IMG/VR virus record: IMGVR_UViG_2872180393_000005 | Location: 1-19,790 of that record | Reading direction: 5' to 3' (one strand) | Origin: a virus | Lineage: Duplodnaviria > Heunggongvirae > Uroviricota > Caudoviricetes | DNA: 19,790 bases | In this document: piece by piece, positions 11,409 to 11,757 of the stretch | Position numbering within the stretch: position 1 is the stretch's first letter | Layout of the letters: each line of letters opens with the position of its first letter | Position numbers and translations under genes: made by a program | The notes under the pieces: generated by a model | The model's database searches: none | What the model was told of the DNA's origin: nothing | What the model saw: the letters and a program-made list of their open reading frames with translations, nothing else

Positions 11409-11437
11409 TTGCAGATGTGATGACATATGGTTATTAT
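11409..11437 (+). promoter_or_regulatory. Candidate promoter for the tRNA cluster: -35 TTGCAG, 17-bp spacer, -10 TATTAT
   Basis: Located about 10 nt upstream of the first tRNA 5' end. Confidence 0.4.
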
Positions 11438-11446
11438 TCTGCCTCC

Positions 11447-11523
11447 GGCCCTTTAGCTCAGTTGGTCAGAGCGAGCGACTCATAATCGCCAGGTCGCTGG
11501 TTCAAGTCCAGCAAGGGCCACCA
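11447..11523 (+). tRNA. tRNA with CAT anticodon, Ile2 (lysidine) type rather than Met
   Basis: 77-nt cloverleaf folded by hand; anticodon loop ctCATaa; close to recalled E. coli ileX; encoded CCA. Confidence 0.8.
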
Positions 11524-11524
11524 A

Positions 11525-11601
11525 CCACCACTAGCTCATCCGGATAGAGCATCAACCTTCTAAGTTGACGGTGCGAGGTTCGAGTCCTCGGTGGTGGGCC
11601 A
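11525..11601 (+). tRNA. tRNA-Arg (TCT anticodon, reads AGA)
   Basis: 77-nt cloverleaf; anticodon stem tcaac/gttga with loop ctTCTaa; T-loop ttcgagt; encoded CCA. Confidence 0.8.
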
Positions 11602-11603
11602 GC

Positions 11604-11679
11604 GCCGACTTAGCTCAGCAGGCAGAGCAACTGACTTGTAATCAGTAGGTCACCAGTTCGATTCCGGTAGTCGGCACCA
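11604..11679 (+). tRNA. tRNA-Thr (TGT anticodon, reads ACA)
   Basis: 76-nt cloverleaf; anticodon stem actga/tcagt with loop ctTGTaa; one A-C mismatch in the T-stem. Confidence 0.7.
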
Positions 11680-11682
11680 TAT

Positions 11683-11757
11683 GCGGGCATCGTATAATGG
11701 CTATTACCTCAGCCTTCCAAGCTGATGATGCGGGTTCGATTCCCGCTGCCCGCTCCA
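11683..11757 (+). tRNA. tRNA-Gly (TCC anticodon, reads GGA), apparently identical to host glyT
   Basis: 75-nt sequence gcgggcatcgtataatggctattacctcagccttccaagctgatgatgcgggttcgattcccgctgcccgctcca matches recalled E. coli glyT. Confidence 0.85.

Follow-up and report, generated by a model that had tools for sequence, protein, structure and literature searches.

A four-tRNA cassette in the late region of a decayed lambda-like prophage of Shigella and enteroinvasive Escherichia coli

Four tRNA genes and their identities

The DNA analysed here, the 19,790 nucleotides of IMG/VR virus record IMGVR_UViG_2872180393_000005 (the window), contains a cassette of four tRNA genes that is part of a decayed lambda-like prophage of Shigella and enteroinvasive Escherichia coli. 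The window was scanned in full (19.8 kb) for tRNA genes with ARAGORN and with Rfam model RF00005 (gathering score 29 bits). ARAGORN gave four genes in total, every one on the plus strand, and RF00005 gave the same four. They are tRNA-Ile2 (11447-11523, anticodon CAT, reading AUA), tRNA-Arg(UCU) (11525-11601, anticodon TCT, on a phage-lineage scaffold, reading AGA and, less well, AGG), tRNA-Thr(UGU) (11604-11679, anticodon TGT, thrU-type, reading ACA) and tRNA-Gly(UCC) (11683-11757, anticodon TCC, glyT-identical, reading GGA and GGG). Their RF00005 scores are 70.5, 56.4, 69.8 and 64.9 bits, respectively, with E-values of 5.5e-10 to 7e-14, far beyond chance.

Consecutive genes are separated by A, GC and TAT, that is, by 1, 2 and 3 nt, and all four encode their CCA end. 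The anticodon loops (CTCATAA in Ile2, CTTCTAA in Arg, CTTGTAA in Thr and CTTCCAA in Gly) have 7 nt, with U33 and a purine at position 37. G18-G19 is present in the D-loop of all four genes, and each T-loop contains GTTCAA or GTTCGA. The cassette consists of four genuine tRNA genes with the sequence characteristics of bacterial elongator tRNAs. An earlier reading of this DNA, made from the letters alone and with hand-folded cloverleaves (the sequence-only reading), had given the same anticodons, the same 1- to 3-nt spacing and the same coordinates. These are correct according to ARAGORN, which accepts all four folds, and Rfam agrees. The cassette is already known as a kind, and it is also already annotated as a sequence, since an identical one is present in RefSeq.

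To assign each gene, the cassette was aligned to the K-12 reference genes glyT, thrU, ileX, ileY, argU and metT and to phage tRNAs. The gene with anticodon CAT is expected to encode a tRNA-Ile2 for AUA, whose C34 would become lysidine. The Ile2 type had been proposed before, and the alignments bear it out: the gene is identical to ileY at 71/77 positions, to ileX at 69/77 and to ileZ of Shiga toxin (Stx) phages at 74/77, and to metT at 54/78. Its acceptor stem (GGCCCTT / AAGGGCC) has C4-G69 and C5-G68, pairs that Ikeuchi et al. (2005) are said to have described as TilS determinants, whereas metT has U4-A69 and A5-U68. RefSeq (PGAP) labels an identical gene tRNA-Ile. ARAGORN prints 'tRNA-Met (cat)' for this gene and several phage records annotate its homologue as tRNA-Met, which would make it an elongator tRNA-Met and leave the cassette with no AUA-reading tRNA-Ile2. 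However, the ARAGORN label reflects the unmodified anticodon only. Given the distance from metT, the two acceptor pairs that are kept, the RefSeq label and the name ileZ of the Stx-phage homologue, we consider a tRNA-Met highly improbable.

The second gene (slot 2) is built on a phage-lineage, argN-type scaffold and not on host argU, a point missed by the sequence-only reading. It matches the argN(UCG) of Stx phages at 62/77 positions and the 'Lys'(UUU) gene of PhiR47_1 at 65/77, and the three share an unusual C1-G72 at the start of the acceptor stem. Host argU was rejected as a source of the gene, with an identity of 58/79. The cloverleaf contains no non-canonical pair, and A20, C35 and U36, which are identity elements of arginyl-tRNA synthetase (ArgRS), are present. 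In BLAST searches the slot-2 scaffold family is found in 1821 of 5426 complete E. coli genomes. Since it matches in these genomes only, the search is not picking up the universal argU. The anticodon carried on this scaffold varies by cassette and is UCG, UCU or UUU.

The other two genes are much closer to host genes. tRNA-Gly is identical to K-12 glyT at 75/75 positions, exactly as had been claimed. tRNA-Thr is identical to K-12 thrU at 74/76 positions, the sole differences being U16C and U20C in the D-loop. Its anticodon arm and T arm are those of thrU, an A52-C62 mismatch included. thrU is essential and is the only ACA reader in E. coli. The A-C mismatch that had been noted in the T-stem is thus real, while the suggestion that it may impair the tRNA is unsupported: because host thrU carries the identical mismatch, it is a native feature and no defect, and an impaired tRNA-Thr was rejected. 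With these two corrections (Thr is not impaired, and Arg is of phage and not of host lineage), the feature is confirmed and the sequence-only reading is right in its essentials and partly supported overall.

The same reading had suggested capture from, or recombination with, the host thrU-tyrU-glyT-thrT region. In favour of this, Thr and Gly both have counterparts in that operon, arranged in the same order, which is circumstantial evidence. However, tyrU, thrT and tufB, the remaining genes of the host thrU-tyrU-glyT-thrT-tufB operon, are absent from the cassette, its promoter differs from that of the host operon, and no homology between the cassette and the K-12 operon was found beyond the mature tRNA ends, in the spacers or in either flank. 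Thr and Gly are 3 nt apart in the cassette, while in the host 8 nt, tyrU and 116 nt lie between them. Simple recent capture of DNA from the host operon was rejected, as there is no homology outside the mature tRNAs; an ancient host origin of Thr and Gly is plausible.

The near identity of both genes to one host operon, next to an Ile2 gene and an Arg gene that have clearly diverged from their host counterparts, could also be the result of recent capture or of ongoing gene conversion that keeps Thr and Gly identical to the host copies. The family argues otherwise. The Thr-Gly junction with its 3-nt spacer is old and widespread, being present in more than 119 IMG/VR contigs and, among species-representative genomes, in Citrobacter braakii, Enterobacter hormaechei, Escherichia ruysiae, Shigella flexneri (three times) and a 4.44-Mb 'E. 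coli' (three times). Moreover, the Gly gene of many relatives has diverged from glyT by a compensated change in the acceptor stem (C6-G to U6-A), so there is no general homogenisation with the host gene. Recent capture or conversion thus seems a decidedly poor explanation.

Promoter, terminators and position in the late operon

The promoter-like element that the sequence-only reading had placed ahead of the cassette exists, with the start it had been given, and it is conserved. A consensus scan locates this promoter, pT, at 11408..11437 on the plus strand. It is of sigma-70 type, with a -35 hexamer TTGCAG (11409-11414), a 17-nt spacing and a -10 hexamer TATTAT (11432-11437), followed by the GC-rich stretch CTGCCTCC that reaches the first tRNA; the scan itself returned the form TTTGCA-18-TATTAT. 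The -10 ends 9 nt before the first tRNA gene and is invariant across 7 divergent clusters. Both hexamers and their 17-nt spacing are kept in 40 distinct loci, in which the bases between and upstream vary. The homologous site in Stx2 phage 06-3462 is annotated 'pT; putative tRNA promoter', and the BLAST match to Stx phages begins approximately 45 nt upstream of the first cassette tRNA.

Gene order places the cassette at the start of the late operon of a lambdoid prophage, on the same strand, in the slot between Q and the lysis genes (the Q-to-lysis slot). Upstream, a gene at 9738..10412 (plus strand) matches Pfam DUF1133 (7e-108) and also reaches the threshold of Phage_antitermQ (8.8e-6), and therefore is taken to encode a Q-type late antiterminator. 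Downstream lie a P21-type holin, a lysozyme and Rz (12436..13609, plus strand; Pfam Phage_holin_2_1, Phage_lysozyme and Phage_lysis). The closest intact relative, in E. coli FDAARGOS_944, carries a 100% identical cassette in the order DUF1367, DUF1364, DUF1133, four tRNAs, holin, rrrD, Rz, terminase, head and tail genes, ipaHb. The Q gene of the window is collinear with the DUF1133 gene of this relative up to 10302. The sequences disagree over the 3' end of the gene and the ~0.8 kb after it; collinearity restarts at 11238 and continues through the lysis genes to 13392.

Three hairpins on the plus strand frame the cassette. Before pT, a tR'-like intrinsic terminator at 11329..11362 (a GC-rich hairpin with a U-run) was missed by the consensus scan and confirmed by folding (-18.5 kcal/mol, z-score -3.7). 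Its relative place is that of the terminators downstream of pR' in Stx2 phage 06-3462. After the cassette there are a terminator-like hairpin with a U-run at 12016..12041 (-12.1 kcal/mol, z-score -2.1) and a strong intrinsic terminator with a 10-bp stem at 12369..12400, 36 nt before the holin start (-17.3 kcal/mol, z-score -3.4; 0/200 shuffles as stable).

The last two hairpins lie in the 678 bp that separate tRNA-Gly from the holin gene (11758-12435), the slot that holds stx in Stx phages. This gap is 98.8% identical in S. flexneri. Two open reading frames within it (11802-12017 and 11935-12195) have no Pfam match, and no Rfam family was found in the gap even at E<=1.

This arrangement suggests that the four genes would be transcribed as one precursor by two routes. 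In the lysogen, pT would act independently of Q, and its transcripts would end at the two terminators that precede the holin gene and so would not extend into the lysis genes. Once the prophage is induced, polymerase modified by Q and starting at pR' would pass through tR' and everything beyond. RNase P would then cut each 5' end and exonucleases would trim the short trailers left by 1- to 3-nt spacers and encoded CCA ends, a processing that is well established in E. coli and T4 transcripts with closely spaced tRNAs.

Codon demand, conservation and possible roles

The four cassette codons had been proposed to be rare in the host and common in acquired genes. As a core set we used 39 annotated K-12 core genes (14,448 codons), and compared it with 44 intact prophage genes of the FDAARGOS_944 relative, the window ipaH, the window phage genes and 35 genes of the ipa-mxi-spa entry region of invasion plasmid pCP301, whose G+C content is 34%. 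AUA, AGA/AGG, ACA and GGA are minor in the core, and their frequency is 2-15 times higher in the genes of the prophage and the invasion plasmid and in ipaH. Odds ratios for prophage against core are 3.5 for ATA, 4.9 for AGA, 2.2 for ACA and 1.9 for GGA (Fisher P 1e-12 to 2e-6). By enrichment in the prophage these codons rank 3, 2, 5 and 8 of 61, and four random codons would rank so with a rank-sum P of ~9e-5. First in rank is AGG, a further codon of tRNA-Arg(UCU). In the entry region the ranks are 2, 1, 7 and 12. Summed, the four codons amount to 17.3 per 1000 in the core, 42.4 in the prophage, 40.4 in the window ipaH and 88.6 in the entry region. The proposal therefore agrees with the counts, and the enrichment is real, although not exclusive to these codons.

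The cassette belongs to a variable family. Its architectures include Thr-Gly (58 loci), Ile2-Lys(UUU)-Thr-Gly (38), Ile2-Arg(UCU)-Thr-Gly (18, the type of the window), Ile2-Lys-Lys-Gly (2) and a few others. Over 40 distinct full-length loci, identity to the window is 0.89-0.997 in the tRNAs and 0.33-0.73 in the flanks. Because the acceptor changes of Gly are compensated, purifying selection appears to act on working tRNAs in the family. Of 5426 complete RefSeq E. coli genomes, 10 have the four-gene Arg-type cassette (at least 98% identity), and these are also the ones with ipaH, all enteroinvasive. Since both occur in exactly the same 10 genomes, the Arg-type cassette marks the ipaH-carrying prophage family of enteroinvasive strains; the simplest explanation of this co-occurrence is physical linkage on one such family. 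Three copies per genome are present in S. flexneri SFBU1023 and three in ECMA0423. The window is identical to none of the three SFBU1023 copies (98.8% identity). In the phage collection, no isolated sequenced phage has the four-gene Arg-type cassette; the best match, with 78% coverage, is of the Lys type.

Other members of the family show further variation. The slot-2 Lys(UUU) gene of sister cassettes (loci L008, 3095-3171; L011, 2607-2683; L016, 1201-1276; L017, 1197-1273) has C33 and not the near-universal U33, together with C16 and G39-U40-U41; position 73 is U in most copies and G in L017. RefSeq annotates this gene in some genomes and omits it in others. It could be a non-functional or a nuclease-resistant Lys tRNA. 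At L017 1276-1351, and also in L096 and L139, a thrU scaffold bears the anticodon UUU (G35 to U, with A26G), which gives the order Ile2-Lys-Lys-Gly and looks like an anticodon that changed in place from Thr to Lys. In E. coli RMDEC332 (L009, 3304-3378) a copy of glyT takes the fourth position; it has anticodon TAC and A38G, lacks CCA and has lost one base from the 3' acceptor strand. RefSeq labels it tRNA-Val, and decay of the copy or an error in assembly is the probable cause. A related cassette also fills the Q-to-holin slot of Yersinia phage YeP1 (L012, 2502-2803). There, a slot-2-scaffold gene that has degenerated (called Gln/pseudo) is accompanied by a CAT tRNA of Ile2 type and by a Gly(UCC) with one compensated acceptor pair different from E. 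coli glyT.

We think that this is probably a classical codon-supplementation tRNA cassette of a lambdoid prophage. Each cassette would add one gene copy for tRNAs that the host encodes once (argU, thrU, glyT) or twice (ileX, ileY), and the decoding capacity for AUA, AGA/AGG, ACA and GGA would rise. Several observations weigh against this reading. It rests on a codon-frequency correlation, and the codon-compensation hypothesis is contested in general (PMC10264068). CGG, TCA, AGT and AAT are enriched as well, with no matching tRNA in the cassette, and the enrichment of GGA is merely moderate. pR' could not be mapped with confidence: the consensus scan was empty over 11239-11330, and the best hand-picked candidate (TTGCAA-17-TTCAAT, 11247-11275) has a poor -10. 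Finally, IS600 and deletion have removed the entire morphogenesis region from the prophage of the window, and with it the original codon demand on the phage side. The loss of the structural genes implies that any present benefit would go to the acquired virulence genes of the host.

A different role has been put forward for phage tRNAs, namely counter-defence (PMC10264068). Accordingly, the cassette could serve mainly to keep translation going when immune nucleases of the host or of a competitor (such as PARIS AriB, PrrC or colicin D) deplete particular tRNAs, the phage copies being resistant. The U16-to-C change, as in T5 tRNAs, impairs cleavage of tRNA-Lys (PMC12409363), and the window Thr differs from thrU by U16C and U20C alone. 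This C16/C20 variant is present in 17/18 Arg-type and 21/58 Thr-Gly-only cassettes, and in 0/38 of the Lys type. In the sister slot-2 Lys(UUU), besides its C16, G39-U40-U41 replaces the AriB site U39-C40/A41. In other lambdoid phages the slot contains Asn(GUU)-Thr(UGU), although their genes show no Asn codon bias. Across phages, Lys(UUU), Thr(UGU) and Asn(GUU), which are the three targets of PARIS/AriB, all occur in the slot, and the anticodon of the third gene also varies, being UGU or UUU.

However, all four anticodon loops of the cassette are host-identical, as are the whole anticodon arms of Thr and Gly, and the AriB site of Thr (U36AAUC/A41) is intact, so the usual signature of resistance is absent. 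The Gly gene is identical to its host counterpart. Thr U16C is the single cassette change that matches a described AriB contact; its effect was measured on tRNA-Lys and not on tRNA-Thr, and positions 16 and 20 are the least constrained of the D-loop, where C16/C20 may be neutral drift. No nuclease is known to us whose targets are Ile2, Arg(UCU) and Gly(UCC) as a set, while codon enrichment is strong for exactly these four codons. We thus regard an anti-defence role of the cassette as unlikely, and it is similarly doubtful that the Q-to-lysis tRNA slot is an evolving counter-defence locus, instead of or besides supplying codons. If it were, the ipaH prophage family, or its lysogen, would keep translating when PARIS-like tRNA nucleases fire.

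Alternatively, the tRNAs could be neutral passengers, a leftover of the ipaH prophage that is intact because it is short and recently acquired, with no current benefit. The prophage is decayed, with three IS600 copies and its structural genes lost. The intactness of the tRNAs is not special, because the neighbouring lysis genes are equally intact, and the presence of cassette and ipaH in the same 10 genomes is explained by linkage, ipaHb lying at the end of the intact relative. Nevertheless, the tRNAs and promoter hexamers are far better conserved than the flanks over the 40 mosaic loci, the compensatory stem changes point to purifying selection in the family, and SFBU1023 and ECMA0423 have each retained several copies. 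A passenger is hence a rather improbable reading, and codon supplementation remains the one that we favour.

The importance of the cassette beyond annotation is small, but it is useful background for the biology of Shigella and enteroinvasive E. coli. Each ipaH-prophage remnant with a cassette would add one copy for sole or rare readers of AUA, AGA, ACA and GGA. As these codons make up ~9% of the entry region against 1.7% of the core, and several copies are kept, the cassettes could influence the translation of virulence genes. Our literature search returned nothing relevant on ileZ, argN or argO, and nothing specific on ipaH islands and tRNA or on this four-tRNA combination. The anticodon switching across the family and the Thr C16 variant provide a testable link to recent work on tRNA-nuclease immunity.

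The prophage remnant and known systems

The remaining features of the window describe an island of ~18 kb. At one end are the small RNA (sRNA) genes SdsR/RyeB and SraC/RyeA (463-607), with an integrase (tyrosine-recombinase) gene adjoining the sdsR/ryeA locus (735-1811), and at the other end is pphA (PRK11439; 18855-19514). The island is therefore what remains of a prophage that integrated at the sdsR (ryeB)-pphA locus; in Salmonella, ryeB has been reported as a site where phages integrate (PMC3603311). Three IS600 copies (IS3-family; 1962-3227, 4016-5281 and 13837-15101, the third inverted) are >99% identical to one another, and the third cuts the prophage off just past the lysis genes. The first two bracket a RalA antitoxin RNA (3440-3618), and an IS4-family transposase fragment lies at 5451-5786. 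The early region of the prophage contains a sok/hok type I toxin-antitoxin locus (8074-8396). Beyond the third IS600, ipaH is encoded on the minus strand (16401-18116), with the Shigella sRNA CssrB (18245-18427) just past its start.

An immunity module of the P1/Gifsy type, made up of c4-a1b1 targets, isrK, C4 antisense RNA and an ORF6N antirepressor-like gene, occurs twice, at 7141-7971 and at 10403-11239, the two being 75% identical. The second (0.9 kb) lies between the Q-like gene and tR', where it stands in place of ~90 bp of the FDAARGOS_944 relative. Compared with this relative, ~110 nt at the 3' end of Q are replaced by the module.

Reports of lambdoid-phage tRNA genes that follow Q, and of a proposed function in reading codons rare in the host, go back to the late 1990s. 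A known case is the ileZ-argN-argO locus of Stx phages (933W type), to which the whole cassette is homologous, a relation that the sequence-only reading had missed. In these phages the order is Q, pR', terminators, pT, ileZ, argN, argO and stx, so that the tRNA genes take the same slot, after Q, pR' and the terminators and before the lysis genes. pT is homologous, and the Ile2 and slot-2 genes correspond to ileZ and argN with the identities given above. However, slot 2 has the anticodon UCU (AGA) in the window and UCG (CGA) in argN. argO, whose scaffold is unrelated (47/77), is missing from the window, and Thr(UGU) and Gly(UCC) are added. Downstream, the window has no toxin genes but the 678-bp stretch with its two terminators. 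As it lacks the gene content ileZ, argN(UCG) and argO(UCU), the window cassette is better described as a sister of the Stx type.

Also related are the Ile2-Lys-Thr-Gly and Thr-Gly cassettes of other enterobacterial prophages, such as Escherichia phage PhiR47_1 and prophages of enterotoxigenic E. coli (ETEC), which have the order, the 1- to 3-nt spacers, the promoter and the slot of the window. The PhiR47_1 type is identical to the window at 74/77 positions in Ile2, 74/76 in Thr and 75/75 in Gly. It differs in slot 2, which is Lys(UUU) with C33 and a changed 39-41 stem where the window has Arg(UCU), and in Thr, which in Lys-type cassettes is host thrU (U16, U20) and in Arg-type cassettes has C16 and C20.

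A further set of lambdoid phages, SfI, Sf6, ST64T and P21, with Shigella and Salmonella among the hosts, carries Asn(GUU)-Thr(UGU) downstream of Q, in the same Q-to-lysis slot. In Shigella phage SfI, the tRNA genes downstream of Q include a Thr(UGU) that matches the ACA bias of the phage (PMC3636060). The window has no Asn tRNA, and in contrast to the Asn-Thr pair of the SfI type it has four genes, including Ile2, Arg and Gly.

The tRNA clusters of T4 and T5 are tightly packed and co-transcribed, as the window cassette would be. T5 tRNA variants, some of them with C16, neutralise PARIS (PMC12409363). However, T4 and T5 are lytic phages with many tRNAs and mutated anticodon arms, whereas the anticodon loops of the window cassette are those of the host and two of its four tRNAs are identical or nearly identical to host genes.

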